A stretch of 46,458 nt of DNA, from NCBI GenBank assembly GCA_964522055.1, contig CAZFUP010000002.1, positions 308-46,765 on the forward strand, written 5' to 3'. This document shows, piece after piece, positions 15,468 to 46,403 of the stretch (positions are counted from its first letter, which is position 1; the number at the start of each line of letters is the position of its first letter). A model generated the notes under the pieces. It worked only from the letters and a program-made list of their open reading frames with translations, had not been told where the DNA came from and searched no databases. This stretch comes from an uncultured Gammaproteobacteria bacterium (GTDB lineage Bacteria; Patescibacteriota; Patescibacteriia; Patescibacteriales; UBA12465). A program made the position numbers and the translations under genes.

Positions 15468-15471
15468 ATTG

Positions 15472-15555
15472 TGCCGCGGGAGGGACTCGAACCCTCATGA
15501 AGTCGCCTCCGCATGATTTTGAGTCATGTGCGTCTACCAGTTCCGCCACCGCGGC
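15472..15555 (-). tRNA. tRNA-Leu (anticodon CAA), type II with long variable arm; no encoded CCA
   Basis: The reverse complement folds as GCCGCGG / D arm GCG-GAACTGGTAGA-CGC / CATGA-CTCAAAA-TCATG / 15-nt variable arm / GAGGG-TTCGAGT-CCCTC / CCGCGGC-A. Confidence 0.9.
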
Positions 15556-33993: not shown

Positions 33994-34452
33994 ATGAATG
34001 AACAAATTATTTCCCAAGAGGGATACGATAAATTAAGAGACGAAATGATTTTTCTAAGCACAGTTAAAAGAAAAGAGATTGCGGAAAGAATAGAAAGAGC
34101 TAAAGAATTAGGAGATTTAAGTGAAAATGCTGAATACAGTGAAGCAAAAGATGCTCAAGCTTTAAATGAAGGTAGAATTTTAGAGCTAACCAATACTTTA
34201 AAAAATGTTACGGTTGTTCAAAGTGAAAAATCAAGAGATAAAGTAGTAATGGGTTCAAAGATAACTGTAAAAACGGACAAAAACGAAAAACAATATACTA
34301 TTGTTAGTTTCAATGAAGCAGATCCTTTAAATGGGAAAATATCTAATGAATCTCCTTTGGGTGTAGCTTTTCTGGAAAGAAAAAAGGGGGATAGTGTTGA
34401 AGTAGAGACGCCACGCGGAATAGTTAAGTATAAAATACTTAAGATAGAATAA
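33994..34452 (+). CDS. greA: Transcription elongation factor GreA
   Basis: Canonical coiled-coil tip ELGDLSENAEYSEAKD and C-terminal domain ISNESPLGVAFLERKKGDSVEV. Confidence 0.92.
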   Translation: MNEQIISQEGYDKLRDEMIFLSTVKRKEIAERIERAKELGDLSENAEYSEAKDAQALNEGRILELTNTLKNVTVVQSEKSRDKVVMGSKITVKTDKNEKQYTIVSFNEADPLNGKISNESPLGVAFLERKKGDSVEVETPRGIVKYKILKIE

Positions 34453-34453
34453 T

Positions 34454-34900
34454 ATGAGGCTTTGGAGCCTTGATCCTAAACATCTTGATCGCCAAGGATT
34501 AATTGCTCTTTGGCGAGAAGGGTTATTGGCTAAAAATGTTTTAGCAGGGAAGACTAAAGGTTATAAAAATCATCCGCAACTTGAACGTTTTAAAGAAGCA
34601 AAAAATCCACTTGAATATATTAACTCTTATCTATACTCTGTTTATCAGGAAGCTAAAAAACGTGGTTATAATTTTTCTCTTGATAAGCTAGAGAAAGTCC
34701 AAACAGATTTACAGAAAATAACTATAAACGAAGACCAACTGCTTTATGAATTCAAACATTTGCTAAATAAATTAAAAATAAGAGATGTAGATAAATATAA
34801 GGAAATACTTAATCTAAAAAAGATAAAAACACATGAACTATTTAGAAAGATAAAAGGACCTATTGAAAAATGGGAAAGAATAATTAATAATAAGAAATAG
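34454..34900 (+). CDS. Pyrimidine-dimer DNA glycosylase/AP lyase-like protein (T4 endonuclease V / Pyr_excise family)
   Basis: MRLWSLDPKHLDRQGLIALWREGLLAKNVLAGKTKGYKNHPQLERF is the conserved N-terminus of bacterial DenV-like proteins. It starts 2 nt after the greA stop. Confidence 0.7.
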   Translation: MRLWSLDPKHLDRQGLIALWREGLLAKNVLAGKTKGYKNHPQLERFKEAKNPLEYINSYLYSVYQEAKKRGYNFSLDKLEKVQTDLQKITINEDQLLYEFKHLLNKLKIRDVDKYKEILNLKKIKTHELFRKIKGPIEKWERIINNKK

Positions 34901-34904
34901 TTTT

Positions 34905-34978
34905 TCGGGGATCGTCTAATGGTAGGACTCCAGGTTCTGGTCCTGGCTATCTGGGTTCGAATCCTAGTCCCCGAGCCA
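34905..34978 (+). tRNA. tRNA-Gln (anticodon CTG), CCA encoded
   Basis: TCGGGGA / GTCT-AATGGTA-GGAC / CCAGG-TTCTGGT-CCTGG / CTAT / CTGGG-TTCGAAT-CCTAG / TCCCCGA-G-CCA. It has the U1-A72 pair typical of bacterial tRNA-Gln. Confidence 0.9.
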
Positions 34979-34989
34979 ACGTAGATTAA

Positions 34990-35013
34990 GCGAGGTTAAA
35001 GCCTCGTTTTTTC
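34990..35013 (+). terminator. Rho-independent terminator after tRNA-Gln
   Basis: cgagg-ttaaag-cctcg followed by T6. Confidence 0.65.
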
Positions 35014-35036
35014 TTTTATTTTCGCCAAAATATGTC

Positions 35037-35050
35037 GGTTCGAACCTAGT
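35037..35050. repeat. tRNA-Gln T-arm-like fragment, copy 1 (GGTTCGAACCTAGT)
   Basis: Matches tRNA-Gln 34954-34968 (GGTTCGAATCCTAGT) with a 1-nt deletion. The core GGTTCGAACC is a palindrome. Confidence 0.45.
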
Positions 35051-35139
35051 GATTTCAGCGTTAAATTTTTCAACGTTATTTCGGAGCGGAATAAGCCAAT
35101 TATGATAAGAAATGCTAATGTTTTTGCCAATTATTCTTT

Positions 35140-35151
35140 GGTTCGAACCTA
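35140..35151. repeat. tRNA-Gln T-arm-like fragment, copy 2 (GGTTCGAACCTA)
   Basis: The same 12-mer as at 35037-35048, 103 nt away. Confidence 0.45.
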
Positions 35152-35220
35152 ACTTCTTAATGATGTTATTTCGTGTTTCCTTGCCGCCTTTATCAAACTC
35201 CTTTCGAGCTCGAGCACAGA

Positions 35221-35252
35221 AAATAAAAAACCGTTCACTCAATTGTGAACGG
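35221..35252 (-). terminator. Rho-independent terminator of the minus-strand Gre-like/kinase operon
   Basis: Minus strand reads ccgttcac-aattga-gtgaacgg followed by TTTTTTATTT, about 25 nt downstream of the stop at 35278. Confidence 0.8.
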
Positions 35253-35277
35253 CTATTTTGTTGTTTGTTCCAGAAAT

Positions 35278-35811
35278 TTATAAATAAATTTTCTGTAGCA
35301 ATTTTTCTACTGACTCTTCGACCTTGAGACCGCTGGTGTCAAAAAATTCCAAGGGAAATTTAGCAAACTCTTGAAAAACATTTTCTTGACAATTAAAGTC
35401 GGTATCAAAGGCGCCAAGATTTTTTCTTTGCCCTATTCTTCTGATTACTTCTTCTTTTTCTGCGTAAAGACAAAAAGCGTAATCGGCTTGAATGACGGTT
35501 TTAATCAGGTCGCCCGAAATAGCAATTCCTAGAGCGCGGTGATAAGCGATTGTTGAATAAATGTATCTATCACAGACAACATGGTTATGCTTTAAAATTT
35601 CTACTATTTCGTTGGCGGCATAAATAGTGCCGCTTAAATAATAGTAGAATCTTAGATTGTAATCTTTTGTTTTTTCAATCGACTCCCGTAAATTTTCAAA
35701 AATTTTTGGAGGCGTCTTATAGTAGATTCCACCTATTTTTTTTGCCAGTTCAATTGCACAAGAACTCTTTCCTGATCCGTCACACCCCTCAAAAACAATT
35801 AATTTTTTCAT
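35278..35811 (-). CDS. Thymidylate-kinase-family P-loop nucleotide kinase (dTMP kinase-like)
   Basis: The likely start is ATG 35811 (MKKLIVFEGCDGSGKS...), 1 nt after the upstream stop. The tracked longer ORF overlaps the upstream gene. P-loop FEGCDGSGKS, DRYIYSTIAYH (DR[YH] motif plus AYQ-like), and a lid-like RRIGQRK. Confidence 0.75.
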   Translation of the reverse strand: MKKLIVFEGCDGSGKSSCAIELAKKIGGIYYKTPPKIFENLRESIEKTKDYNLRFYYYLSGTIYAANEIVEILKHNHVVCDRYIYSTIAYHRALGIAISGDLIKTVIQADYAFCLYAEKEEVIRRIGQRKNLGAFDTDFNCQENVFQEFAKFPLEFFDTSGLKVEESVEKLLQKIYL

Positions 35812-35812
35812 T

Positions 35813-36277
35813 TTACTCAATTTTTTTAATGATGATCTGTTTCCCGTTAAAAGAAGTTGTTTCGCCAATTTTTTTTCCAAGAAGAACGGAATAAAGTGGG
35901 GCCTGTTTACTTACAGCAAATATACTTGTATTACCAACTTTAATTTTTTGACCGCCACCACAAGGAATCAGAAATATTAACTGACTACTGTTATTCGTAT
36001 TTATTTCTACTAATGAACCAAGCAGGACAGTGCTTGTCTCCTTGGGCAGTGAAAAATTAACCAGCTCTTTGATAATATTTTGCATATCGTGTGCCTTTTT
36101 AAAAAGAGCATTTGATAGATAGCTCATCTCTTCTTTTGTTGAGTCGTATCTAGATTCATTTCTTCCTGGAGCATTGATAGCGGCGTCTCTGACTGCGTCA
36201 GCCTGCTCTATCGTCGATTCAAGGGTTTTTTGCAATTTCTTGATGATTTCATCAAAAATTTCTTTTTTAGTTTTCAT
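35813..36277 (-). CDS. GreA/GreB/Rnk-family protein (second Gre-like paralogue; non-canonical coiled-coil tip)
   Basis: The likely start is ATG 36277 (MKTKKEIFDEI...); the tracked start at 36319 is TTG. N-terminal helical hairpin with GRNESRYDSTKEEMSYL. The C-terminal domain VLLGSLVEI...IFAVSKQAPLYSVLLGKKIGETTSFNGKQIIIKKIE fits the Gre C-terminal pattern (V..GS.V...IS..SPL...LLGKK.GD). Confidence 0.65.
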   Translation of the reverse strand: MKTKKEIFDEIIKKLQKTLESTIEQADAVRDAAINAPGRNESRYDSTKEEMSYLSNALFKKAHDMQNIIKELVNFSLPKETSTVLLGSLVEINTNNSSQLIFLIPCGGGQKIKVGNTSIFAVSKQAPLYSVLLGKKIGETTSFNGKQIIIKKIE

Positions 36278-36322
36278 AATTCCTATTTTTTTGTGAGTAT
36301 TTATGTTAAAGAACTTCAAATT

Positions 36323-36351
36323 AAACTACATCATTTATGATATTTTGTCAA
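36323..36351 (-). promoter_or_regulatory. Putative promoter of the Gre-like/kinase operon (TTGACA-17-TAGTTT)
   Basis: Minus strand reads ttgaca aaatatcataaatgatg tagttt. The -35 lies inside a 15-nt element shared with the nucleotidase promoter. Confidence 0.45.
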
Positions 36352-36352
36352 T

Positions 36353-36387
36353 GTTTGCGCGGCTTAGTTCAAGAAACTAGCGCAAAC
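36353..36387. promoter_or_regulatory. GC-rich inverted repeat GTTTGCGC-N19-GCGCAAAC between the divergent -35 boxes (candidate operator)
   Basis: Perfect 8-bp arms at 36353-36360 and 36380-36387. This is the only GC-rich patch in the AT-rich 173-bp divergent intergenic region. Confidence 0.45.
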
Positions 36388-36391
36388 ACCC

Positions 36392-36420
36392 TTGTTATTT
36401 TGAGCTTAATTTGAAATAAT
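36392..36420 (+). promoter_or_regulatory. Putative promoter of the CYTH/radical SAM operon (TTGTTA-17-AATAAT)
   Basis: ttgtta at 36392-36397 and aataat at 36415-36420, 30 nt upstream of ATG 36451. Confidence 0.3.
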
Positions 36421-36450
36421 ATTATTAATATCAACTTAAAAAATAAAATT

Positions 36451-36987
36451 ATGCAAATCGAAAATGAAGTTAAATTTAGAACGAGTAGACCCGGAAAATT
36501 AATGAAAAAGAAAATTATTGATTTTGGTTTTAAATTTAAAAAAGAAATATCTCAAGATGATTACTATTTTTCACCGCCACACAAAAAATTTGCCGGAACA
36601 AAAAAATATTATCTCCGTCTTAGAAAAAAATCAGATGGTACGGCCGTTTTTGCTTATCATGTAGTTATTAATAATTTACAAACCAAGGAATTAGAACTAG
36701 CCTGCGATAATTTTATAATTTTAAAAACTATTTTGACTAAGCTAGATTTTAAACTGGATTGCGTTGTTAAAAAACATAGACAAATATTTGTAGACGAAAA
36801 AAATAACTTTGAGTTAGTTCTCGATAAAGTTGTCGGTCTCGGTTATTTTATAGAAATTGAATATGTCGGCAAAATGACAAAAGCAACTAGCCAAAAATTT
36901 CAGGAGTTAGTTGATTATCTTGGTCTTAAAAAAAGTCAGATAGTCTCTGGTTGTGGATATCCTGACTTGTTAATGGAAAAAAAATAA
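36451..36987 (+). CDS. CYTH-domain protein (CyaB-like class IV adenylyl cyclase / triphosphate tunnel metalloenzyme)
   Basis: N-terminal ExExK signature (IENEVKF, nt 36460-36474), DDYYF, YLRLRKK, LVLDKVVGLGYFIEIEY, and a C-terminal GYPDLL. 178 aa, the typical size. Confidence 0.75.
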   Translation: MQIENEVKFRTSRPGKLMKKKIIDFGFKFKKEISQDDYYFSPPHKKFAGTKKYYLRLRKKSDGTAVFAYHVVINNLQTKELELACDNFIILKTILTKLDFKLDCVVKKHRQIFVDEKNNFELVLDKVVGLGYFIEIEYVGKMTKATSQKFQELVDYLGLKKSQIVSGCGYPDLLMEKK

Positions 36988-36991
36988 TATT

Positions 36992-37987
36992 ATGCTTAAA
37001 GTAAAATTTTGTTTACCTCGTTCAATTAGAATCAAATTAAATAGCACTTGTCAGTATAATTGTAAATTTTGTCATCAAGAGGGTAATAGTACTGCTCAAG
37101 AAGTCAATCAAGACGAGGTTGTTGCTTGTTTAAAAAAGTTTAAAAAAGAATTATTTTTTTACAGAGTTCACTATACGGGCGGAGAACCAACTTTATATCG
37201 AAATTTAATAAGTTTAATAAAAAAAACTAAAAAAATTGGCATCATTAACTCCATTACTTCAAATGGACAGTTTGATCCAAGCCTTTTGTCAAAACTTAAA
37301 GACGCGGGCCTCGACTCTATAAATTTCAGTATTCACTCTTTAGAAAAATTTTCATTTTTAAAACTACAAAATCATAAAATGAGCACTAAAGAAGGAGCTT
37401 TGTGGGCACAAAACTGTATAGACTTAGCTGTTAGCAATGTTATTAATGCAGAAAAGTTAATAAATACTAAAATCAACTGTGTTGTAGGTGATGAGTTTTC
37501 CAGTGCAGAAGATATATTATTGTTTTGTGCAAAAAACAATATTAAACTGCGGCTTTTAAATGATTTGTCTTTAGGTGAAAGATCTTTGCAAACAATTAAC
37601 TTTATTTTAAAGAAGAACGAAGCTAATTTAATTGGCCACGAGGTAACCTTAATTAGTTCTAGTCATCGTTTAGACTATCAACTCAATGAAAAATACAATT
37701 TTGGAGTTAAGTGTATTAGAAATTTTTATCTAAAGTCTCTCTGTGATGATTGCCCGATTAGAAGAGCGGGGAAATGCTACGAAGGATTTTATGGAATTCG
37801 TTTGGAGGGTAATCCACTTAAAGTAAGACTATGCTTATATCGTAATGGGTCGCCATTTGTACAAAGTCTAAAGGATTTCTTTAAAAGTAGGCAGTATAAA
37901 GAGCTTAAAAAAGATACCGAGAATGTCAAACAATATTTATTAAAAGATGATATTATAGAAGAGCAAAAAACTAATTTGAAAAAATAA
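36992..37987 (+). CDS. Radical SAM enzyme, MoaA/viperin-like (nucleoside-triphosphate-type architecture)
   Basis: IRIKLNSTCQYNCKFCHQEG (CX3CX2C at 37049-37072), YTGGEPTLYRNL, SITSNGQF, LKDAGLDSINFSIHSL. C-terminal cysteines CDDCPIRRAGKC...GIRLEGNPLKVRLCLY (37742-37834) are reminiscent of the MoaA auxiliary-cluster/GTP-binding tail. Starts 4 nt after the CYTH stop. Confidence 0.7.
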   Translation: MLKVKFCLPRSIRIKLNSTCQYNCKFCHQEGNSTAQEVNQDEVVACLKKFKKELFFYRVHYTGGEPTLYRNLISLIKKTKKIGIINSITSNGQFDPSLLSKLKDAGLDSINFSIHSLEKFSFLKLQNHKMSTKEGALWAQNCIDLAVSNVINAEKLINTKINCVVGDEFSSAEDILLFCAKNNIKLRLLNDLSLGERSLQTINFILKKNEANLIGHEVTLISSSHRLDYQLNEKYNFGVKCIRNFYLKSLCDDCPIRRAGKCYEGFYGIRLEGNPLKVRLCLYRNGSPFVQSLKDFFKSRQYKELKKDTENVKQYLLKDDIIEEQKTNLKK

Positions 37988-38092
37988 GTGAATCTTTAAG
38001 ATAGGATTTCTTTGAGTAATATAAATATTAAGAGTTAATATCTCATCTAATCTTAGTCATACTAGTTTGAACATCATCCACGATTCTGAACA

Positions 38093-38121
38093 TTGACAAA
38101 ATAACACTTTACAGCTTAATA
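38093..38121 (+). promoter_or_regulatory. Putative promoter of the HAD nucleotidase gene (TTGACA-17-TTAATA)
   Basis: Consensus -35 at 38093-38098 and -10 at 38116-38121, about 40 nt upstream of ATG 38160. Confidence 0.5.
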
Positions 38122-38159
38122 TTGCTTAAAATAGCAACTTAAAAAGAAAGAAGAAAACA

Positions 38160-38756
38160 ATGAACATCGCAGTAGATTTAGACGACACTTTAGTCGATTT
38201 ACTCGAACAATTAATTTTATTCCATAATAATACTTTTGGAACAAATTTAAAGAGAAATGATTTCAACACTTGTATTTATCAAAAGGTGTGGGGAGGAAGT
38301 CGAGAAGAGACAATAGCTAAAATAATGAATTTCATTGCTTCTCCGTATTTTCAGGACATACGACCTTTAATAGGCGCGGTTGAAGGTGTTGAACATTTAA
38401 AAAGCTTGGGACATAATCTGTTTTTAGTAACTGGCCGTGATAATAACACAAATATTTTAACTAGAAAATTATTAGATCAATATTTTTCTGGATATTTCTG
38501 TGGTGTTTATCACACTAATGCATATACGCATAGTGATGGTTGGCTCAAAAAATCAGAAGTTTGTGCACGCTTAAAAGCACCTCTTATCATCGACGATGAC
38601 CCAATTCATATTCATGATTGTACTGATCGAGGAATTAAAGTCTTAGTCTACGATAATCCATGGAACAGAATTGAATTGCCAGTTGGTGCAACGCGGGTAT
38701 TAAATTGGAAAGAAATTATTGTTTGCGTCAATGAGTTGGCAACAGAGAATCTTTAG
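38160..38756 (+). CDS. HAD-superfamily 5'(3')-deoxyribonucleotidase-like phosphatase (NT5C-like)
   Basis: Motif I IAVDLDDTLVD (DxDxT), motif II LFLVTGRD, and motif III/IV K...LIIDDDPIHI. The size and layout are like NT5C/YorS-type nucleotidases. Confidence 0.65.
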   Translation: MNIAVDLDDTLVDLLEQLILFHNNTFGTNLKRNDFNTCIYQKVWGGSREETIAKIMNFIASPYFQDIRPLIGAVEGVEHLKSLGHNLFLVTGRDNNTNILTRKLLDQYFSGYFCGVYHTNAYTHSDGWLKKSEVCARLKAPLIIDDDPIHIHDCTDRGIKVLVYDNPWNRIELPVGATRVLNWKEIIVCVNELATENL

Positions 38757-38775
38757 CAGGATTCTCTTTTTATTT
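38744..38775 (+). terminator. Rho-independent terminator overlapping the nucleotidase stop codon
   Basis: agagaatc-tttagcag-gattctct followed by TTTTTATTTT. Confidence 0.75.
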
Positions 38776-38894
38776 TAAGTAATAATAAATAATACTTAAT
38801 CATATATAATCTTAAAAAATACGTTTACAAAAGAATTTTTTTATGGTATATATTTATATAGTTTTCATTATTTTTCTTAATATTTTACAAACCT

Positions 38895-40394
38895 ATGACA
38901 CAAAAAAGTCATCAAAATGAAGATAAATTACCAGAAGAGTCTTCTCATATCAGTGAAACTGAGGATCGTCTGCGTAAACTAGAGGAATTAAAAGAAAAGG
39001 GAATTAATCCTTATCCAGCAAAGGTAAAGCGCGACATGACTGTTAAATCTTTTTTTGAGAACTTTAGCTTACTAGAAGAGAGGGCTGTAAATATCGTTGG
39101 CCGTCTAAGATCTAAAAGAATACATGGCAATCTTGCTTTTGCTGATTTACAAGATGAAAGCGGTACCTTGCAACTAGTTTTTTCTAAAAAAGAACTTGAG
39201 GGCGATAGTTTTAAAACTTTTGTTAAATTAATAGATACAGCTGATTTTATTCAAGTAACTGGTGTTCCGTTTTTAACCAATAAAGAGGTAAAGAGTTTAA
39301 TGATTAAAGATTTTAAACTTTTAACCAAAGCCTTAAAACCAATCCCTGATTCTTGGTATGGACTAAAAAATGAAGAAGAAAGACTTAGAAAAAGATATAT
39401 TGATTTACTGTTAAATGAAGAATTAAGAGATATTTTTTATAAAAAAGCTAAATTCTGGTCAGTCACTAGAGAATTCATGAAAAAGAAAGGTTTTTTTGAA
39501 GTAGAAACACCAACTTTAGAAACAACCACCGGTGGTGCTGAAGCTAATCCTTTTATAACTCACCATAATGATTTTGACATGCAAGTTTATCTTCGTATTT
39601 CCATTGGTGAATTGTGGCAAAAAAGATTAATGGCGGCTGGTTATGAAAAAGTTTTTGAAATTGGCCGTGCTTATCGTAATGAAGGTTCTAGCCCAGATCA
39701 TTTACAAGAATTTACCAACATGGAATTCTACTGGGCCTACGCTGATTATGAAGAAGGAATGAAGCTTGCTCAAGAGCTGTATCAAGAATTAGCTATGCAA
39801 GTTTTTGGCACTACTAAGTTTACAACCAAAGGAATGGAATATGATCTGTCAGGAGAATGGGAAAGAATTGATTATAGACAAACTGTCTTGGATAAAACCG
39901 GAATTGATGTTCTTGGTGCTAGTGAAGAAGAAATGAAGGCAAAGCTGGAAGAGTTAAAGGTTAAATATGAAGGGGATAATAAAGAGAGATTAATGGATAC
40001 TCTTTGGAAGTATTGTCGTCGTAGTATTGCTGGCCCGGTTTTTTTAATAAATCACCCAAAGTTAGTTTCACCGCTAGCCAAGGCTAAAACAGACAATCCA
40101 GAATTAACAGAAAGATTTCAAATTATTATTGCTGGATCAGAAATTGGTAATGGCTTTTCTGAATTAAATGACCCAATAGACCAAAGAAAAAGATTTAATT
40201 TGCAACAAGAATTAATAGACAGAGGGGATAATGAAGCGATGATGGCTGACTGGGAATTTGTCGAAATGCTAGAGCATGGCATGCCGCCTACTTGTGGTTT
40301 TGGTTTTGGCGAAAGATTGTTTGCTTTTTTATGCAATAAACCAGTTAGAGAAACAACCCTGTTTCCTCTAATGAAACCTAAAAAAGAGGATTAA
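38895..40394 (+). CDS. lysS: Lysyl-tRNA synthetase, class II
   Basis: OB-fold N-domain (GRLRSKRIHGNLAFADLQDESG). Class II motifs FFEVETPTLE, FEIGRAYRNEG and GFGFGERLF. Confidence 0.95.
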   Translation: MTQKSHQNEDKLPEESSHISETEDRLRKLEELKEKGINPYPAKVKRDMTVKSFFENFSLLEERAVNIVGRLRSKRIHGNLAFADLQDESGTLQLVFSKKELEGDSFKTFVKLIDTADFIQVTGVPFLTNKEVKSLMIKDFKLLTKALKPIPDSWYGLKNEEERLRKRYIDLLLNEELRDIFYKKAKFWSVTREFMKKKGFFEVETPTLETTTGGAEANPFITHHNDFDMQVYLRISIGELWQKRLMAAGYEKVFEIGRAYRNEGSSPDHLQEFTNMEFYWAYADYEEGMKLAQELYQELAMQVFGTTKFTTKGMEYDLSGEWERIDYRQTVLDKTGIDVLGASEEEMKAKLEELKVKYEGDNKERLMDTLWKYCRRSIAGPVFLINHPKLVSPLAKAKTDNPELTERFQIIIAGSEIGNGFSELNDPIDQRKRFNLQQELIDRGDNEAMMADWEFVEMLEHGMPPTCGFGFGERLFAFLCNKPVRETTLFPLMKPKKED

Positions 40395-41661: not shown

Positions 41662-42648
41662 ATGAAAAAGAAAAAAATTTTCCCAACTAGTGCTGCTAAT
41701 TTAATGACACGGTCAGTGCCAATAGCTAGTGTTAACGACAGCATTGAAACTGTAAAGAAGAATTTTTTTAAGGAAATAAAAAAATTAAAATCAATTAACT
41801 ACGTTTACGTTATTGATAATAAAAACTTCTTAAAGGGAACAGTTTCCATAAGAGAATTATTCCAACAAACCAGAAACAGAAACATAACAGCAATCATGGA
41901 AAAAGATCTTGTTTATGCCTATAAGAATTCTGATAGGGAAGAGGTCGCCTATTTAGCTTTAAAAAATAACATTAAATCAGTCCCTATCCTTGATAAAAGA
42001 AATAAATTTACTGGCGTAGTTTTAAATGATGATATTTTAAAAATTATCTACAAAGAATTGCAAGAAGATATTTCTCATTTTATCGGTTTAGATCCGGAAA
42101 TAGATAATGGGAATTTGGATGATATTCGTTCTATGTCTATTTATGCTTCTTTGAAAAACCGTTTACCTTGGCTTATCGTTGGTATTCTTGGTGGTGTTTT
42201 GGCAGCTCAAGTTATCAGTATATTTGAACAAACTTTATCCAAAAATATTATCTTAGCCGCCTTTATACCGCTAGTAGTTTATATTGCCTCTGCTATTGGC
42301 ACTCAAGCTGGATTTTTTATAGTAAGAGACTTGGCAATCAACAAAACTATTAATTTTTTTTCCTACACCTTTAAACAATTTAAAGTAATTTCAGCTATGG
42401 GTGTGATTATTGGCTGTTTAATATTTATTTTTTCTTTAATTTTTTATCAAAGTATTAATTTAGCCTTAATATTATCCCTATCCATCTTTTTGACTATAAT
42501 ATCAGCTATAATCACTGGAATTTTTATTCCCTATGCTTTTAGCCGCTTAAAATTTGACCCGGCTAATGCTAGCGGCCCAATCGCTACTATTATCCAAGAT
42601 CTTTTAAGTGTTTCTATTTATTTAATAATTGCTAGTGCTTTATTATAA
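41662..42648 (+). CDS. Short MgtE-family divalent cation transporter (CBS pair plus MgtE membrane domain, no MgtE_N domain)
   Basis: CBS-like N-terminal region (LMTRSVPIASVNDSI..., NYVYVIDNKNFLKGTVSIRELF, SVPILDKRNKFTGVV). The TM domain ends in NASGPIATIIQDLLSVSIYLIIA, the MgtE signature. Confidence 0.75.
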   Translation: MKKKKIFPTSAANLMTRSVPIASVNDSIETVKKNFFKEIKKLKSINYVYVIDNKNFLKGTVSIRELFQQTRNRNITAIMEKDLVYAYKNSDREEVAYLALKNNIKSVPILDKRNKFTGVVLNDDILKIIYKELQEDISHFIGLDPEIDNGNLDDIRSMSIYASLKNRLPWLIVGILGGVLAAQVISIFEQTLSKNIILAAFIPLVVYIASAIGTQAGFFIVRDLAINKTINFFSYTFKQFKVISAMGVIIGCLIFIFSLIFYQSINLALILSLSIFLTIISAIITGIFIPYAFSRLKFDPANASGPIATIIQDLLSVSIYLIIASALL

Positions 42649-42650
42649 AT

Positions 42651-43580
42651 ATGTCTAAAAAAAGGATTTTATATTCTTTAATCTTAATATTTTTCTTGTT
42701 TACCGCCTCAATTTTATTTTTTTCTAAAGAAAAGGAAAGGGAAGATGAAAAAAACTTAAAGGTGGTCACAACTATCTTTCCTTTATACGATATCGCTAAA
42801 AACATTGGCGGAGATGAAGTTGAAGTTTCAATGCTTCTTGACCCAGGGCTTGAAGCTCATTCTTTTGAGCCAACGCCTAGCGATATGATAGAAATAAACA
42901 AAGCTGATATTTTCATCTATACTGGACCATTTATGGAAATATGGGCAGAGAGAGTTATTAGTGCAGCCGATAATCCAAATATTTTAGTAATAAGCGCTAG
43001 TGAGTCTATTGAACTTTTGGAAGAAGAGGATGAATCTGGACACAAACATGAAGAGGGTGACCCTCATATTTGGCTTGATTTTGATAATTTAAAAATAATG
43101 CTTGAAAATATTAAAGATGGGTTTATAGAAAAAGGACTTAATGAAGAAAACGTTCAAAAAAGAGCAAATGAATATGAAAAGGCGATTAATGATATAGACG
43201 AGGCTTATTTTCAATACTTATCTAACTGCAAAACTCGCACTCTTGTCTATGGTGGCCATTATGCCTTTGCTTATCTTGCCAAAAGATACAATCTTTCATA
43301 CCAATCAGCTTATGGCTTATCACCTAATTCAGAGCCAAGCGCATTAAAGTTAACCGAACTTACTGAGCAAATAAAAGATAATAATTTAAAATATATCTTT
43401 CACGAAGAGTTATTAAACCCTCTCTTAAGTGAAACTCTGCGCCAAGAAACGGGAGTGAAAATTTTAAATTTAAGCGCAGCGCATAATTTAAGTCGAGAAG
43501 ATTTAGATGCTAATAAATCCCTTTTTCAAGTTTTACTAGAAAATCTAAAAAGCTTACAAACGGGGCTTGAATGCTACTAA
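42651..43580 (+). CDS. Metal ABC transporter substrate-binding protein (ZnuA/TroA family)
   Basis: Signal anchor, then LKVVTTIFPLYDIAKNIGGD, HSFEPTP, an acidic/His loop EEEDESGHKHEEGDPHIWLD, and FHEE. Confidence 0.85.
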   Translation: MSKKRILYSLILIFFLFTASILFFSKEKEREDEKNLKVVTTIFPLYDIAKNIGGDEVEVSMLLDPGLEAHSFEPTPSDMIEINKADIFIYTGPFMEIWAERVISAADNPNILVISASESIELLEEEDESGHKHEEGDPHIWLDFDNLKIMLENIKDGFIEKGLNEENVQKRANEYEKAINDIDEAYFQYLSNCKTRTLVYGGHYAFAYLAKRYNLSYQSAYGLSPNSEPSALKLTELTEQIKDNNLKYIFHEELLNPLLSETLRQETGVKILNLSAAHNLSREDLDANKSLFQVLLENLKSLQTGLECY

Positions 43581-43586
43581 TATCTT

Positions 43587-44327
43587 ATGGAAAATATATT
43601 AGAGATAAAAAACCTTAGTTTTAGCTACGATTATCTGCCAATAATAGATAATGTTTCTTTTAATGTTCAAAGAGGTGATTTTATTGCTTTAGCTGGACCT
43701 AATGGAGCAGGAAAAACAACTTTGGTAAAGTTAATGCTATTTTTAGAAGAAGCTCAGAAAGGAAAAATAAAGATATTTGGTGAAAAAGAAAAAGATAAAA
43801 TACCTTGGGATAAGATAGGCTATCTAGCACAAAGAAACAATCTTTTTAATCCACTTTTTCCAGCTAAAGTCAAAGAAGTTATAGGGCTAGGTCTTTTTTC
43901 TAAAAAAAGAATATCAAATAAAAATAACCAAGAAAAAATAAATCATATTTTAGATTTATTAGATATAAAAGATTTAAAAAATAAAACAATAAATGAACTC
44001 TCCGGCGGCCAACAACAGAAAGTGTTTTTAGGTCGGGCACTTATATCTGATCCTGAATTATTAATCATGGATGAACCAAGTACAGCCCTTGATCCAAAAA
44101 CAAAAAATAATTTTTTTAAATTAATAAAAAGATTAAATAAAGAAAAAAGAGTAACTATTATTATGATTACTCACGACACTGCTCAAGCTGGAGAATATGC
44201 CGAAAAACTTTTATATTTAGAGAAAAAAATTATTTTTTTTGGAAAATTTTCTGATTTCTGTAAATCACCAGAAATGGAAAAATACTTTGGACACTTTACT
44301 CAGCATTTAATTTGTCACCAGCACTAA
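43587..44327 (+). CDS. Metal ABC transporter ATP-binding protein (ZnuC-like)
   Basis: Walker A GPNGAGKTT, signature LSGGQQQ, Walker B LLIMDEP, and H-loop ITHD. Confidence 0.9.
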   Translation: MENILEIKNLSFSYDYLPIIDNVSFNVQRGDFIALAGPNGAGKTTLVKLMLFLEEAQKGKIKIFGEKEKDKIPWDKIGYLAQRNNLFNPLFPAKVKEVIGLGLFSKKRISNKNNQEKINHILDLLDIKDLKNKTINELSGGQQQKVFLGRALISDPELLIMDEPSTALDPKTKNNFFKLIKRLNKEKRVTIIMITHDTAQAGEYAEKLLYLEKKIIFFGKFSDFCKSPEMEKYFGHFTQHLICHQH

Positions 44328-44328
44328 T

Positions 44329-45132
44329 ATGAATATCACTGAATTGCTTAATTACCAATTTATTCAAAATGCTTATTTAGCCGGAACTTTTATTGCTCTG
44401 CTTTGCGCGGTATTAGGATTAATACTGGTTTTAAAAAAGCTATCGCTAATTGGCGACGGTTTAGCTCATGTTAGTTTTGGTGCTATCGCTTTAGGCCTAT
44501 TTTTTGGTTTTTATCCTTTTTACATTGCTATCCCGGTTGTAATTTTAGCTTCTTATCTTATTTGGCACCTTGAAAAAAGAAGTAAGCTATATGGTGATGC
44601 TGCTATTGGAATAGTTTCAGCTGTTGGCATAGCTAGTGGAGTAATTTTAGCTAGTATTTCTCGTGGTTTTAACATTGATCTTTTTAGTTATTTATTTGGA
44701 AATATTTTAGCAATTAGCCAAACAGAAGTTTTATTATCAATAATTTTATCTTTAATAGCCCTAACAATTATTATTATTTTTTATAGAAATTTATTTATCA
44801 CTACTTTTGATGAAGAATATGCTAAAACTAGAGGAATAAAAACAGATAAAATTAACTTGATATTAATGACCTTAACAGCCATTACCGTTGTTTTAGCAAT
44901 CAAAGTTGTGGGGATAATGCTAGTTTCCGCTTTACTTATCATGCCAGCTGCCAGCTCACTTCAAATAGCTAAAGGCTTTAAATCAGCTATTATCATTGCT
45001 GGTATAAATGCAGTTTTTTCAGTTTTAATTGGAATAACGGTTTCTTTTTATCTAGACATACCAGCTGGGGCAACTATTGTTATTATTAATTTTATCATAT
45101 TTATCTTCATGTTTTTGGGTAAGAAAATTTAA
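44329..45132 (+). CDS. Metal ABC transporter permease (ZnuB-like, ABC-3 family)
   Basis: About 8 TM segments. GLAHVSFGAIALG and FDEEYAKTRGI are typical of ABC-3 permeases. Confidence 0.85.
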   Translation: MNITELLNYQFIQNAYLAGTFIALLCAVLGLILVLKKLSLIGDGLAHVSFGAIALGLFFGFYPFYIAIPVVILASYLIWHLEKRSKLYGDAAIGIVSAVGIASGVILASISRGFNIDLFSYLFGNILAISQTEVLLSIILSLIALTIIIIFYRNLFITTFDEEYAKTRGIKTDKINLILMTLTAITVVLAIKVVGIMLVSALLIMPAASSLQIAKGFKSAIIIAGINAVFSVLIGITVSFYLDIPAGATIVIINFIIFIFMFLGKKI

Positions 45133-45152
45133 AAACATGGTATAATAATTTT

Positions 45153-46403
45153 ATGTTAGATGAAAAATTTCAAGATTTACTTAAACAAATATCTCGTTAT
45201 CCTAAAAAACGTTTAGATATTTTTAATAATATTAAATCTACCAAACAGAGAAATGTTATTTTAAATCTATCAAAATATGTCCAATATGACATTGTTTCAA
45301 AACTAAGCAATCAGGGGATAGTAGATCTTCTGCAAAATCTTGATATGGACGAGGCGGGAGATATTTTGCGTTTGCTACCAAGAAAAAGACAAAAAGAAAT
45401 TATTAAAACTTTAAATGATAATTTAAAAGCAGAAGTTTCTTTGCTTTTAAGTTTTGATCCTGAAACGGCCTTAGATTTAATAAACGTTAATTACATTCAA
45501 GTAGAACACGATGATACAATTTCTTCTGTTTCCGGGCAAGTAAAAACACATGAGAAAAGAACAGGGAAGCTGCCAACTATTTTGGTTATGAATAATGATA
45601 AATTAATTGGTAGCCTGCCTGGATATAATTTAGGATTAGCTCATCCGGAAGAAGAAGCCCGTCTTTATACAAAAAAAATAAAAACAGTTTCACAAAATAT
45701 TAGCACTGACAAACTTTTAGAGATATTTAGGAAAAACCCACGCAGCAAAGTAGTTGTTTTAAACGACAAAAAACACGTTCTTGGATTTATCTATTCTGAT
45801 GATGTTTTAAAGTTTCTTCATGAAAAAGATGCTTTAAATCTTTATGATTTTGCTGGTGTTAATAAAGAAGAATCTGTTTTTGATGCCGCTAAAACGAAGG
45901 TAAAATTTCGCTATAAATGGCTGATTATTAACTTAGGGACAGCTTTCTTAGCTTCTTTTACTGTTAGTTTATTTGAAGAAACTATTGCTAAATATGTTCT
46001 TTTAGCTATTTATATGCCTATTGTCGCTGGTATGGGTGGAAATTCAGCTACACAAACCTTAGCGGTAGTTGTAAGAGGAATATCTCTTAAACAAATTAAC
46101 CTAAAAACCATGTTTAGAACCCTTAAAAACGAACTGGGTGCTAGTTTTGTTAATGGTCTTATAAACGGCATATTAGTAGCTTCTATAGTTATAATAAAAG
46201 ACGGGGATTTAAAGTTAGCTTTAGTTTTAGCGCTAGCTATGATAGTAAATTTGGGCGTAGCTGCTTTTTTTGGAACAACAGTCCCTTTAATTATGAAAAG
46301 ACTTGGGAAAGATCCAGCTTCATCAGCAACAATTTTTATTACAACTGCAACCGATGTTTTGGGTTTTATTTCCTTTTTGGGTCTAGCAACAATTATTCTT
46401 TAG
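45153..46403 (+). CDS. mgtE: Magnesium transporter MgtE (full length: MgtE_N + CBS pair + membrane domain)
   Basis: LLQNLDMDEAGDILRLLPRKRQKEII (MgtE_N), a CBS region, then IYMPIVAGMGGNSATQT and DPASSATIFITTATDVLGFISFLGLA. Confidence 0.88.
   Translation: MLDEKFQDLLKQISRYPKKRLDIFNNIKSTKQRNVILNLSKYVQYDIVSKLSNQGIVDLLQNLDMDEAGDILRLLPRKRQKEIIKTLNDNLKAEVSLLLSFDPETALDLINVNYIQVEHDDTISSVSGQVKTHEKRTGKLPTILVMNNDKLIGSLPGYNLGLAHPEEEARLYTKKIKTVSQNISTDKLLEIFRKNPRSKVVVLNDKKHVLGFIYSDDVLKFLHEKDALNLYDFAGVNKEESVFDAAKTKVKFRYKWLIINLGTAFLASFTVSLFEETIAKYVLLAIYMPIVAGMGGNSATQTLAVVVRGISLKQINLKTMFRTLKNELGASFVNGLINGILVASIVIIKDGDLKLALVLALAMIVNLGVAAFFGTTVPLIMKRLGKDPASSATIFITTATDVLGFISFLGLATIIL

Follow-up and report, generated by a model that had tools for sequence, protein, structure and literature searches.

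The radical SAM protein encoded at 36992-37987 of a 46,458-nucleotide stretch of bacterial DNA (hereafter, the window) is, judging by sequence and gene context, not the molybdenum cofactor enzyme MoaA that it resembles. The explanation that we favor, to which we give a probability of slightly over one half (roughly 55%), is that the protein is a two-cluster radical SAM enzyme from a family lying between MoaA and AbmM. It would act on the sugar of a free NDP or NTP, rather than on GTP for molybdenum cofactor (Moco) synthesis, within a nucleotide-analogue cassette tied to RNA polymerase (RNAP). Counting against this explanation, no family member has biochemical data behind it, and neither the base nor the phosphate state of the substrate nor the reaction has been determined. 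Further points against it, detailed below, are the cyclase name of the CYTH protein, the single invariant acidic residue of the Gre-like tip, the housekeeping surroundings without an exporter, an NT5C gene not conserved with the module, the possibility that the kinase is the only Tmk of the genome, and the weak C-terminal alignment with AbmM.

The genes encoding the radical SAM enzyme, a CYTH protein, a thymidylate kinase (Tmk)-fold kinase, and a Gre-like protein all lie within 35278-37987 (Table 1). They form two divergent operons, Gre-like/kinase and CYTH/radical SAM. The intergenic region between them contains an inverted repeat with perfectly matching 8-bp arms (36353-36387) and, at 36392-36420, a promoter-like site that has an extended -10 element. 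The module adjoins housekeeping genes (greA, a pyrimidine-dimer glycosylase gene, and lysS), and no obvious defence island, biosynthetic cluster, or exporter was seen around it in the window. A riboswitch or leader RNA serving the module was ruled out by Rfam, which detected only a tRNA-Gln in 34800-39000, had no match in the intergenic region, and was equally negative for the sequences upstream of the module in ten related loci.

Table 1. Positions of the module genes, their motifs, and flanking elements in the window.
Feature	Position	Strand	Remarks
Terminator-like hairpin directly downstream of the kinase gene	35229..35254	-	
Divergent thymidylate-kinase-fold NMP kinase, 177 aa	35278..35811	-	Pfam; mechanical ORF to 35880
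Gre-factor paralog, 154 aa	35813..36277	-	Coiled coil and GreA C-terminal domain; mechanical ORF to 36319
Divergent intergenic region between the Gre-like/kinase and CYTH/radical SAM operons	36278..36450	.	173 bp
CYTH (triphosphate tunnel) protein, 178 aa	36451..36987	+	Pfam, NCBIfam; ExExK at residues 4-8
Radical SAM enzyme, 331 aa, ATG start	36992..37987	+	AbmM/MoaA-related family: CxxxCxxCHxEG and C-terminal four-Cys motif
Codons of C20/C24/C27, followed by family-specific H28-x-E30-G31	37049..37072	+	CxxxCxxC, ligands of the SAM-binding [4Fe-4S] cluster
Codons of C251/C254/C262/C281 and C-x-E-x-[FY]-Y-G-[IV]-R	37742..37834	+	Presumed auxiliary Fe-S site
HAD-family NT5C-type 5'-(deoxy)nucleotidase, 198 aa	38160..38756	+	Pfam NT5C, 42 bits

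Relation of the radical SAM enzyme to MoaA

The only Pfam domain detected in the 331-aa protein was radical SAM (PF04055; 71.2 bits vs a cut-off of 29.5). An earlier sequence-only reading of the window had matched four N-terminal motifs to MoaA by eye and had pointed to a C-terminal cysteine set. Both the reading frame and the motifs (RSIRIKLNSTCQYNCKFC, YTGGEP, ITSNG, and AGLDSINFSIHS) proved real, and the motifs were reproduced in HMMER and MAFFT alignments with S. aureus MoaA and metagenomic MoaA proteins. The cysteine set is likewise present. When conservation was counted over 135 distinct family members, the alignment showed C20, C24, and C27 to be invariant (135/135), and C251, C254, C262, and C281 were each kept in 133-134 members. 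The same reading had also placed an insertion, PIRRAGKCYEGFYG, in the C-terminal cysteine region. HMMER and MAFFT instead gave a collinear alignment, in which the third cluster cysteine of MoaA falls on Ile269 because the ...FYG of the family aligns with the ...FYG-Cys of MoaA. Thus, the cysteine pattern is rewired without an interrupting insertion, and we discarded the insertion reading.

The auxiliary cluster of MoaA is held by three cysteines (CxxC-x13-C), leaving an open iron site for GTP. In the window protein, the CxxC is kept as C251/C254, while the position of the third cysteine is taken by I269, and the family as a whole carries Ile or Val there. Two further invariant cysteines, C262 and C281, are new relative to MoaA and give four candidate cluster ligands. 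The residues through which S. aureus MoaA contacts the triphosphate and ribose (R17, T102, N124, K163, and R192) correspond to R13, T89, N111, K160, and R187 of the window protein. R13, T89, N111, N162, and R187 are invariant or nearly so among the 135 members, and residue 160 is Lys or Arg in 112 of them. In contrast, the guanine-binding R266 and R268 of MoaA (Arg-x-Arg after CxxC) are not conserved in the family, in which the C254-C262 segment varies both in length (4-7 residues) and in sequence. Whether the GTP contacts and all three auxiliary cysteines of MoaA had persisted was a check already named in the sequence-only reading. Its outcome is divided: the triphosphate/ribose contacts have been kept, while the third auxiliary cysteine and the R266/R268 segment have not.

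These comparisons bear on the possibility that the protein is, after all, a genuine but divergent GTP 3',8-cyclase for the molybdenum cofactor, as in the IMG annotation, which names family cluster members either MoaA or cyclic pyranopterin phosphate synthase. MoaA is indeed the best match of the protein at both the profile and the fold level, and the two share a two-cluster architecture. However, the scores obtained with the three MoaA models were far below their cut-offs: 98.3 bits vs 325.25 for TIGR02668, 89.8 vs 231 for NF001199, and 81 vs 284.05 for TIGR02666. Mob_synth_C (PF06463), which is carried by the true MoaA matches P0072-P0074, was absent from the protein in a Pfam scan. The C-terminal Gly-Gly was missing too, as the protein ends with ...KTNLKK and the MoaA controls with ...HIGG. 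The gene context agrees with these losses. A Pfam scan of the 36 window ORFs detected no MoaB, MoaC, MoaD, MoaE, MoeA, or MobA within the 46 kb, as had been claimed from the sequence alone, and no molybdoenzyme domains in this 46-kb window. Nor did the gene calls of the five related contigs that we inspected include any Moco gene. In addition, the partner gene of the family is CYTH or NUDIX, never moaC, the partner of MoaA. Together with the missing third cysteine and the unconserved R266/R268 segment, the sequence and gene-context evidence already contradicts the assignment to MoaA, to which we give practically no credence.

Comparison with AbmM, viperins, and other characterized systems

The best single-sequence match in the PDB was AbmM (PDB 8WM2; E 2e-11), and an HMM built on the N-terminal part of the family scored AbmM at 80.7 bits, MoaA at 62-73, and BlsE at 53. 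Our comparison with AbmM is limited to motif matching and this N-terminal HMM score, with no full-length phylogeny. AbmM and the family share CxxxCxxCHxEG, of which CHxEG is absent in MoaA, as well as the GGEP and TTNG motifs. AbmM also has in common with the window protein the C-terminal pattern C-x2-C-x5-C-x-E...RL...R-x-C-L, which across the family takes the form C-x2-C-x(4-7)-C-x-E ... R-L ... R-x-C-L. The alignment of AbmM over this C-terminal part is weak (0.6 bits), and the likeness therefore rests on motif identity. Identity to AbmM amounts to no more than ~32% across the N-terminal ~105 residues, and AbmM lacks several family invariants (H60 is replaced by Q, N111 by H, and Y267/G268 differ).

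This likeness allows a specific version of the favored explanation, in which the enzyme would be an AbmM-like thiosugar synthase. Its four-Cys cluster would be sacrificed as a sulfur donor in the conversion of an NDP or NTP furanose to a 4'-thiofuranose, with the P-loop kinase acting as AbmG or ThmB and the CYTH protein as a ThmC-like triphosphatase. The abmM gene sits inside a large siderophore-nucleoside gene cluster. This albomycin cluster is not known to contain a CYTH gene, and no partner of CYTH or Gre-like type is known for AbmM. Moreover, the window kinase is Tmk-like and not dNK-like. AbmM is a radical SAM enzyme of the albomycin pathway with a nucleotide-sugar substrate and a dNK-like kinase, AbmG, as its partner (PMC12691670). 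AbmM exchanges oxygen for sulfur, its own cluster being reported as the sulfur donor, and AbmG is required for the thiofuranose (PMC12691670; PMC9092360). Further support comes from the thmABC genes for 4'-thiothymidine, which comprise a radical SAM enzyme, an AbmG-like kinase, and a self-resistance NTPase (PMC12691670; PMC9092360). This Photorhabdus system follows the same logic of radical SAM enzyme, P-loop kinase, and triphosphatase as the window module, and its triphosphatase shields the producer (PMC12691670). The window, in turn, holds a Tmk-like kinase, a triphosphate-tunnel enzyme, and a deoxypyrimidine-type nucleotidase. Unlike the CPR-type module, the thm cluster has no Gre-like gene. 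On the other hand, ThmA reportedly lacks significant identity to AbmM (PMC12691670). We hold the thiosugar version to be quite unlikely.

The module also bears a resemblance to viperin systems, in which a radical SAM enzyme acting on the sugar of an NTP is paired with a kinase of thymidylate-kinase fold (CMPK2 or VakA), and whose product is a polymerase chain terminator. Among defence databases, the module matched the PADLOC models for pVip and VakA. The pVip match (61 bits) covers the radical SAM core only, and the viperin model NF038283 scored 60 bits vs a cut-off of 180. No PADLOC model matched the Gre-like or CYTH protein, even at E = 1, and searches against PHROGs returned only generic radical SAM and kinase matches. 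Viperins are not known to have an auxiliary cluster, whereas the family has four invariant C-terminal cysteines. No CYTH or Gre-like partner has been described for viperins.

In the oxetanocin (OxsA/OxsB) and puromycin (Pur10/Pur7/Pur3) pathways, the sugar is modified on a phosphorylated nucleotide, from which the phosphates are subsequently removed by a phosphatase and a dedicated phosphohydrolase of the HD-domain or Nudix type; this removal also detoxifies the product for the producer. These pathways differ from the family in that they use a B12-radical SAM enzyme or an NAD-dependent dehydrogenase, and the family mostly has CYTH rather than HD or Nudix. A puromycin-type hypothesis was also dropped: the Photorhabdus 3'-amino-3'-deoxyguanosine cluster is puromycin-like, and the source paper makes no mention of a radical SAM enzyme.

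Last, we evaluated the assignment of the protein to SPASM/twitch-type radical SAM maturases of RiPP peptides, an outcome that the sequence-only reading had listed as refuting its own proposal. Via its radical SAM core, the protein weakly matched NCBIfam models of SPASM maturases, among them PqqE and SkfB-like. The Streptococcus loci of the family adjoin Rgg-like regulators, as do many streptococcal radical SAM RiPP clusters. However, the maturase matches span only residues ~10-150, and the SPASM domain (PF13186) was not detected by Pfam or NCBIfam, so the profile searches did not bear out a placement among peptide maturases. There is no small precursor ORF beside the radical SAM gene, where the flanking 173 bp is the promoter region, and the conserved partners and fusions are all nucleotide enzymes or Gre-like proteins. 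We therefore consider a peptide maturase extremely unlikely.

Distribution of the family and its nucleotide-enzyme partners

A literature search found no description of the family. Its members are rare and patchily spread over phyla: in a set of 1.84 billion representatives, they make up only 229 clusters at 50% identity. In 69 of 87 loci, a CYTH gene directly neighbors the radical SAM gene and is read from the same strand, and these paired loci come from CPR bacteria, Streptomyces, Streptococcus, and Bacillus. In the window, the CYTH stop codon lies 4 nt upstream of the radical SAM ATG, and relatives show a 4-nt overlap of the pair. The operon link claimed from the window alone is substantiated. 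One fusion of the radical SAM domain to CYTH (L089), one to NUDIX (L027), and one to a Sugar-bind domain (P0101) were also found. Family members accompanied by CYTH occur on four IMG/VR contigs, which may be viral or misclassified; in one case, the two domains are fused.

The kept triphosphate/ribose contacts, the nucleotide-enzyme partners, and the CYTH and NUDIX fusions, together with the missed MoaA cut-offs, the domain content, and the cysteine pattern, bear out what had been proposed from the letters of the window. That the protein is a radical SAM enzyme repurposed for nucleotide modification and coupled to an enzyme of the triphosphate-tunnel type, rather than a GTP 3',8-cyclase for Moco, is well supported as a prediction, with neither substrate nor reaction shown.

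The CYTH protein, which starts with MQIENEVKF, scored 58.2 bits with PF01928 (cut-off 23.2). It also exceeded the cut-off of the NCBIfam model for cyaB, class IV adenylate cyclase (TIGR00318; 73.8 bits vs 57.95). Because of this naming, it is possible that the protein cyclises its substrate rather than hydrolyses it; no activity data are available. Its closest solved structures are archaeal CYTH/TTM proteins and not the solved class IV cyclases, and in several relatives NUDIX replaces or joins CYTH.

The kinase gene starts 1 nt past the Gre-like stop codon. Its product keeps the Tmk fold, the P-loop, the DRY motif, and the LID arginine, and scored 59 bits with Pfam Thymidylate_kin. It did not reach the dTMP kinase cut-off (TIGR00041; 57.3 bits vs 83.25), and the best solved Tmk gave only 24.6 bits. 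PADLOC matched the kinase to PDC-M51B (77 bits) and to the viperin-associated kinase VakA (50 bits), while IMG names it "dTMP kinase." It could in principle be the only Tmk of the genome. The radical SAM gene and the NT5C gene downstream of it are not separated by a terminator, and a terminator-like hairpin is located at 38744-38767. The NT5C gene was absent from every related locus examined, and its membership in the module is therefore doubtful. It is possible that NT5C provides an accessory step in the window genome only.

In Firmicutes, the operon that holds the radical SAM-CYTH core also encodes ATP-grasp ligases and an MFS exporter, a context which suggests that the core makes a nucleoside "warhead" that is put to different uses depending on the lineage. 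Family members also occur in biosynthetic-looking operons on a Bacillus plasmid and in free-living Streptomyces, and one MAG carries two copies (L018 and L020).

Such a distribution is hard to reconcile with housekeeping nucleotide salvage in reduced genomes. According to that explanation, the radical SAM enzyme would provide a route to deoxy- or repaired nucleotides, the kinase would be the dTMP kinase of the cell, and the Gre-like gene would merely neighbor it as a greA duplicate. The housekeeping surroundings of the module, the "dTMP kinase" name given by IMG, and the downstream NT5C deoxynucleotidase gene would all fit. However, the rarity and patchiness of the family, the MAG with two copies, and the biosynthetic-looking operons argue against it, and fusions of the Gre-like domain to the radical SAM enzyme (see below) speak against chance adjacency. 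Thus, we regard salvage as very unlikely.

The Gre-like paralog and a proposed link to RNA polymerase

Among the CPR and uncultured loci, the Gre-like gene was present in 23 of 32 and the Tmk-fold kinase gene, as a neighbor of the radical SAM gene, in 18 of 32. A TFIIS-type zinc ribbon was seen in L001 and L002 only and was ruled out as a recurrent substitute for the Gre-like protein. The 154-aa form of the window protein agrees with the public gene call. It scored only 24.7 bits with the NCBIfam GreA model (cut-off 161), and because the window also encodes a canonical GreA, it represents an extra paralog. Its AF2 model (pLDDT 87) was matched best by Foldseek to Gfh1 in complex with RNAP, GreA, and GreB (TM ~0.6). 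The best structural match, Gfh1, has the same coiled coil and GreA C-terminal fold and is bound in the RNAP secondary channel.

The tip of the window protein reads ..GRNESRYDS.. instead of the D-x-x-E of GreA. In 23 relatives, the tip is conserved as G-x-M-x-S-R-Y-D-[TS], with a 3-residue insertion compared to GreA, and this motif distinguishes it from Gfh1 and other non-cleaving Gre homologues. The tip has a single invariant acidic residue, in contrast to the acidic pair of GreA (D41 and E44 in E. coli), which makes rescue by classical transcript cleavage doubtful. The radical SAM enzyme and the Gre-like domain are fused in P0132 and P0221, both with an SR[YF]DT tip, and in a third cluster representative, P0204, with a different tip. 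At the locus of the P0132 fusion (L103), a Tmk-like gene overlaps and follows the fusion gene. We know of no description of a genetic tie or fusion to a radical SAM enzyme for any Gre homologue.

Under the favored explanation, the cassette may work as follows. By analogy with viperin-CMPK2/VakA and AbmM-AbmG, the Tmk-fold kinase would raise the level of the NDP or NTP substrate. The radical SAM enzyme would bind this nucleotide through the MoaA-type phosphate/ribose contacts, whose conservation we observed, and then abstract a hydrogen from the ribose and rearrange or substitute the sugar with the help of the four-Cys cluster; this chemistry is inferred. CYTH, or NUDIX in some relatives, would cleave the polyphosphate of the product, as inferred by analogy with ThmC, OxsA, and Pur7. 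Cleavage would either mature the product or keep the toxic triphosphate low in the producer, and in the window NT5C could complete the dephosphorylation. The Gre factor with the SRYD(T/S) tip is tied to the system by genetic linkage and fusions, which are observed, while its role at the RNAP secondary (NTP-entry) channel is inferred. There, it may shield or rescue the polymerase of the producer or steer the product to RNAP. Because the Gre factor links the system to the NTP-entry channel, the product is most likely a transcription-directed nucleotide analogue, for example, a chain terminator or an inhibitor, a role that remains inferred.

A stronger proposal is that the enzyme works at RNAP itself, with the Gre-like factor docked in the NTP-entry channel and the nucleotide made by the radical SAM enzyme delivered to the active site or serving there as a cofactor. 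We consider this unlikely, though still worth entertaining. If true, it would represent a new form of transcription control, or of targeted shut-off, by a small molecule plus a channel factor, widespread in CPR bacteria and with CYTH or NUDIX as the off-switch.

The same partners could also point to signalling and not to a poison. The radical SAM enzyme and a CYTH cyclase would then make a modified, possibly cyclic, nucleotide that acts on RNAP together with the Gre-like factor, in the manner of ppGpp with DksA. Consistent with this, CYTH passes the class IV adenylate cyclase cut-off, the Gre-like protein pairs the fold of Gfh1/GreA with a tip that is non-catalytic, and some genomes encode it as a fusion with the synthase, and the module is located among housekeeping genes beside canonical greA. 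In contrast, the replacement or accompaniment of CYTH by NUDIX in several relatives favors hydrolysis, the closest solved CYTH proteins are archaeal TTMs rather than class IV cyclases, and the Firmicute versions resemble operons for exported metabolites. Signalling thus appears rather improbable to us.

Our analysis corrects an annotation error that propagates: the MoaA label used in IMG would give a false hint of Moco synthesis in CPR genomes. What the analysis describes instead is a compact family of radical SAM-CYTH pairs that spans phyla and to which no reaction has been assigned. The link between the radical SAM enzyme and a Gre-like protein whose tip motif is new points to transcription, either as target or as beneficiary. 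It could reveal either self-protection against chain-terminating nucleotides or a new regulation of the CPR polymerase. Together, these data indicate that the most likely product of this uncharacterised cassette, which occurs in many bacterial phyla, is an altered nucleotide. As the closest characterised relatives of the enzyme (MoaA, AbmM, and viperin) perform unusual nucleotide-sugar chemistry, a new nucleotide analogue is a realistic prospect, and the natural-product-like operons of the Firmicute and Streptomyces versions, which reside in culturable hosts, make this prospect testable.

Conservation and extent of a two-cluster radical SAM family distinct from MoaA

Judged from its sequence, the window radical SAM protein is not MoaA. 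The MoaA-like N-terminal motifs picked out by the sequence-only reading were all recovered (RSIRIKLNSTCQYNCKFC, YTGGEP, ITSNG, and AGLDSINFSIHS) upon comparison by HMMER and MAFFT with S. aureus MoaA and three metagenomic MoaA sequences, and the C-terminal cysteine set it had described was found as C251, C254, C262, and C281. What it had called an "insertion" near these cysteines is more aptly viewed as a rewiring of the cysteine pattern. In the HMMER and MAFFT alignments, ...E-G-F-Y-G-I-R of the family aligns with ...G-K-F-Y-G-C of MoaA, and the third auxiliary-cluster cysteine of MoaA therefore corresponds to Ile269. The protein scored below the cut-offs of three NCBIfam MoaA equivalog models (98/325, 90/231, and 81/284 bits, score/cut-off), as well as those for viperin (60/180) and QueE (24/260). 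Pfam found only the radical SAM core in it and no Mob_synth_C, a domain carried by the true MoaA hits P0072 to P0074, and in the MAFFT comparison it lacked the Gly-Gly tail with which the MoaA controls finish (...HIGG). A genuine MoaA is contradicted by these sub-cut-off scores and by the missing Mob_synth_C, Gly-Gly tail, and third cysteine; a RiPP maturase was likewise contradicted by our tests.

The contacts to the GTP triphosphate and ribose in the S. aureus MoaA complex (2FB3), which we take to be R17, T102, N124, K163, and R192, align with R13, T89, N111, K160, and R187 of the window protein. Among 135 members, R13 is kept in 134, T89 in all, and R187 in 132, while neither length nor sequence is constant among family members in the segment matching the guanine-binding R266/R268. 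Thus, the MoaA substrate contacts are retained for triphosphate and ribose, and neither that segment nor the full set of three auxiliary cysteines is. Invariant or nearly so in 135 distinct sequences are R13, K15, C20, C24, C27, H28, E30, G31, H60, TGGEP, T89, and S113 in the N-terminal part and N162, R187, S223, K240, C251, C254, C262, E264, Y267, G268, R270, and C281 in the rest. A confident AF2 model (pLDDT 92) gave MoaA as the top Foldseek match (E 3e-13, TM 0.56), followed by BlsE, SuiB, viperins, and AbmM. The protein represents a distinct two-cluster radical SAM family with MoaA-like phosphate and ribose contacts kept.

The best single-sequence PDB match was 8WM2 (E 2e-11), titled "Crystal structure of AbmM" in Foldseek. 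AbmM shares with the family CHxEG and the C-terminal pattern C-x2-C-x5-C-x-E...RL...R-x-C-L; it lacks H60, N111, Y267, and G268. The family N-terminal-core HMM gave 80.7 bits for AbmM, against 62-73 for MoaAs and 53 for BlsE.

A word-indexed search returned about 70 relatives, an exhaustive profile search of 1.84 billion cluster representatives picked out 229 at E <= 1e-30, and a scan of GTDB species genomes gave 347 relatives. The last spanned the CPR phyla Uhr-, Moran-, Falkow-, Davies-, Jorgensen-, Peri-, and Saccharibacteria, and also Chloroflexi, a deltaproteobacterium, Kuenenia, many Streptomyces, Amycolatopsis, Nocardia, Shimazuella, Paenibacillus, and Streptococcus mitis/pneumoniae. 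NCBI members of the window protein's 90% cluster are labelled Patescibacteria group, whereas the contig of the closest relative (CAZCQW010000004.1; radical SAM protein 92% identical, gene order identical) is labelled "uncultured Gammaproteobacteria bacterium" and is probably a mislabelled bin. Two separate contigs of one Moraniibacteriota MAG (isolate MAG_322) each carry the full Gre-like/Tmk-like/radical SAM/CYTH module; this genome may hold two paralogous copies.

Gene layout and CYTH/NUDIX partners

The proposed coupling of the CYTH and radical SAM genes held up: 4 nt separate the TAA stop of the CYTH gene from the ATG of the radical SAM gene, and relatives show a 4-nt overlap of the pair. 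An NT5C-type nucleotidase follows on the plus strand; because it is missing from all related loci, we regard it as a doubtful accessory. The Gre-like and kinase genes, separated by 1 nt, diverge from this operon across 173 bp. This promoter region contains a perfect 8-bp inverted repeat, GTTTGCGC-n19-GCGCAAAC, which has no Rfam match and could be an operator.

Features of the window and of the Firmicute operons
Feature	Position	Strand	Remarks
808-aa ORF	1-2427		off 5' edge; no Pfam match
1300-aa protein	5845-9747		Lamin-tail and Laminin_G_3 domains
tRNA-Leu (CAA)	15471-15555	-
Canonical greA	33994-34452		directly upstream of module, with glycosylase gene
Pyr_excise-type DNA glycosylase	34454-34900		after greA, directly upstream of module
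tRNA-Gln (CTG)	34905-34978	+	between pyrimidine-dimer glycosylase and kinase genes
92-aa ORF	34964-35242	-	overlaps tRNA-Gln; probably spurious
Terminator-like hairpin	35229-35254		after kinase
Tmk-fold kinase	35278-35811	-	177 aa; start agrees with public gene call
Gre-like gene	35813-36277	-	154 aa; start agrees with public gene call
Inverted repeat	36353-36387
CYTH gene	36451-36987	+	PF01928, 58 bits
Radical SAM gene	36992-37987	+	331 aa
C251, C254, C262, C281 codons	37742-37834	+
Terminator-like hairpin	38744-38767		after NT5C-type nucleotidase
MgtE and Znu transporter genes	41662-46403
Firmicute version, L102	5670-12234		B. cereus plasmid NZ_CP063160.1
Firmicute version, L034/L039	6861-14797		Streptococcus mitis/pneumoniae

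In line with the claim that the 46 kb hold no Moco genes, Pfam analysis of 36 window ORFs found neither a Moco gene nor a molybdoenzyme. It showed housekeeping and cell-envelope genes (DnaE, ParA/ParB, RF1, L25, L31, MnmA, FtsW, glycosyltransferases, and MgtE and Znu transporters). Two MgtE-family genes, one without MgtE_N, flank a ZnuA/ZnuC/ZnuB-type metal ABC transporter. The 808-aa and 1300-aa products are probably large surface proteins of the kind typical of CPR.

The closest solved structures to the window CYTH are archaeal CYTH/TTM proteins, and its score exceeds the cut-off of the "class IV adenylate cyclase" model of NCBIfam. With ORFs called in 87 loci, CYTH was adjacent on the same strand in 69; Pfam confirmed examples from Shimazuella, Streptococcus, Amycolatopsis, and Moranbacteria, and on the Bacillus cereus plasmid RefSeq places a "radical SAM protein" beside a "CYTH domain-containing protein." After removal of duplicate loci, CYTH was adjacent in 36 of 39 actinobacterial loci (Gre-like or Tmk-like in none), all 8 from Firmicutes, and 20 of 32 from CPR or other uncultured lineages. 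The last group had CYTH or NUDIX in 22, Gre-like in 23, Tmk-like in 18, and Gre-like together with Tmk-like in 14. Links to partner genes are supported by fusions: radical SAM-CYTH (L089, 551 aa), NUDIX-radical SAM (L027, NUDIX 58 bits), and Sugar-bind-radical SAM (P0101). In one family branch (L005, 5201-6004), a SorC-type "Sugar-bind" (PF04198) protein takes the place of CYTH, its gene directly preceding the radical SAM gene and overlapping it. This and the P0101 fusion point to recognition of a phosphosugar moiety.

The Firmicute operon runs ATP-grasp, radical SAM, CYTH, a 405-aa hypothetical protein, ATP-grasp, and MFS, with ATP-grasp and MFS present in both Streptococcus and B. cereus. 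Both ATP-grasp genes are L-amino-acid-ligase-like, the ~405-aa protein is a weak AlaRS-like match, and the Streptococcus operon adjoins Rgg-like regulators and a relaxase. The arrangement has the look of a biosynthetic operon for an exported metabolite, and of a mobile gene cluster whose exported product would be an aminoacyl or peptidyl nucleoside.

Gre-like factor and Tmk-fold kinase

The Gre-like protein is predicted (pLDDT 87) to share the fold of Gfh1, GreA, and GreB, with Gfh1 in an RNAP complex as top match (TM 0.63). Its tip reads G-x-M-x-S-R-Y-D-[TS], in contrast to the acidic D-x-x-E of GreA. Radical SAM-Gre-like fusions occur in P0132 (tip SRMESRFDT), P0221 (ARESRYDT), and P0204, and at L103 a Tmk-like gene follows and overlaps the P0132 fusion gene. 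The window kinase retains the P-loop, DRY, and LID arginines and is remote from true Tmks (24 bits against solved structures; 57 bits against an 83-bit equivalog cut-off); PADLOC matched it to PDC-M51B and viperin-associated kinase models. The radical SAM family is thus tied, by synteny and fusion, to presumed polyphosphate-cleaving enzymes, a nucleotide kinase, and a Gre-fold factor.

The window has two Gre-family genes within ~1.4 kb, and canonical greA also lies near the module in the CPR contig L001. No SRYD-tip Gre-like gene is present there. Directly adjoining its Tmk-like kinase, L001 (7859-8215, minus strand; same in L002) encodes a 118-aa protein with two zinc ribbons, one N-terminal and the other C-terminal and of TFIIS/TFS type, with its "RADE" acidic hairpin intact; such a eukaryote/archaeon-type transcript cleavage factor would be unusual in a bacterium. 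At L106 (3298-7422), the P0221 fusion has as neighbours a divergently transcribed MazG-like NTP pyrophosphatase, a Schlafen-group-3-like helicase, and, close by, a Fic protein, surroundings resembling a defence island; as called, the fusion ORF lacks the CxxxCxxC start and may be truncated or miscalled. The 699-aa fusion P0213 (L104, 740-2839) begins with a TIR_2-like region (23.6 bits, short of the Pfam cut-off), has a Nudix-box-like middle, and ends in a radical SAM domain of this family, which hints at a biological-conflict (immune-type) role in some lineages.

Proposed function

The failed MoaA models, the retained phosphate and ribose contacts, and the nucleotide-enzyme partners favor, as first proposed, a repurposed nucleotide-modifying radical SAM enzyme over a Moco cyclase; its substrate and sugar chemistry are inferred. 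In this model, the kinase would supply a free NDP or NTP, the radical SAM enzyme would alter the nucleotide sugar, and CYTH or NUDIX would, by analogy, strip polyphosphate in maturation or self-protection. OxsA and Pur7 are precedents for the last step. Another is ThmC of the 4'-thiothymidine cluster (PMC12691670). AbmM, whose partner is the kinase homologue AbmG, is reported to swap a nucleotide-sugar ring oxygen for sulfur with its own Fe-S cluster as donor (PMC12691670; PMC9092360), and sulfur insertion of this type would be a specific form of the nucleotide-modification model. The product would be aimed at transcription, since the conserved partner, in some cases fused to the enzyme, is a factor of the RNA-polymerase secondary channel. 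Alternatively, a cyclic-nucleotide or alarmone-like signal could work with the Gre-like factor, or the genes could serve housekeeping salvage. For the nucleotide-modifying enzyme, we cannot decide whether the CPR version makes an anti-phage weapon, an antimetabolite, or a regulator.

Our literature search found no paper tying CYTH or a Gre factor to a radical SAM enzyme; RefSeq names for the pair are only generic, IMG misnames the family protein MoaA, and the Gre-like and CYTH partners are not covered by any PADLOC model. Viperin-CMPK2, AbmM-AbmG, and thmABC are of the same general kind, with a radical SAM enzyme remodeling a nucleotide sugar assisted by a kinase and a phosphohydrolase. The family itself, its obligatory pairing with CYTH, and its link to a Gre factor are new relative to these, and it is this last connection, to the polymerase, that could be something categorically new.
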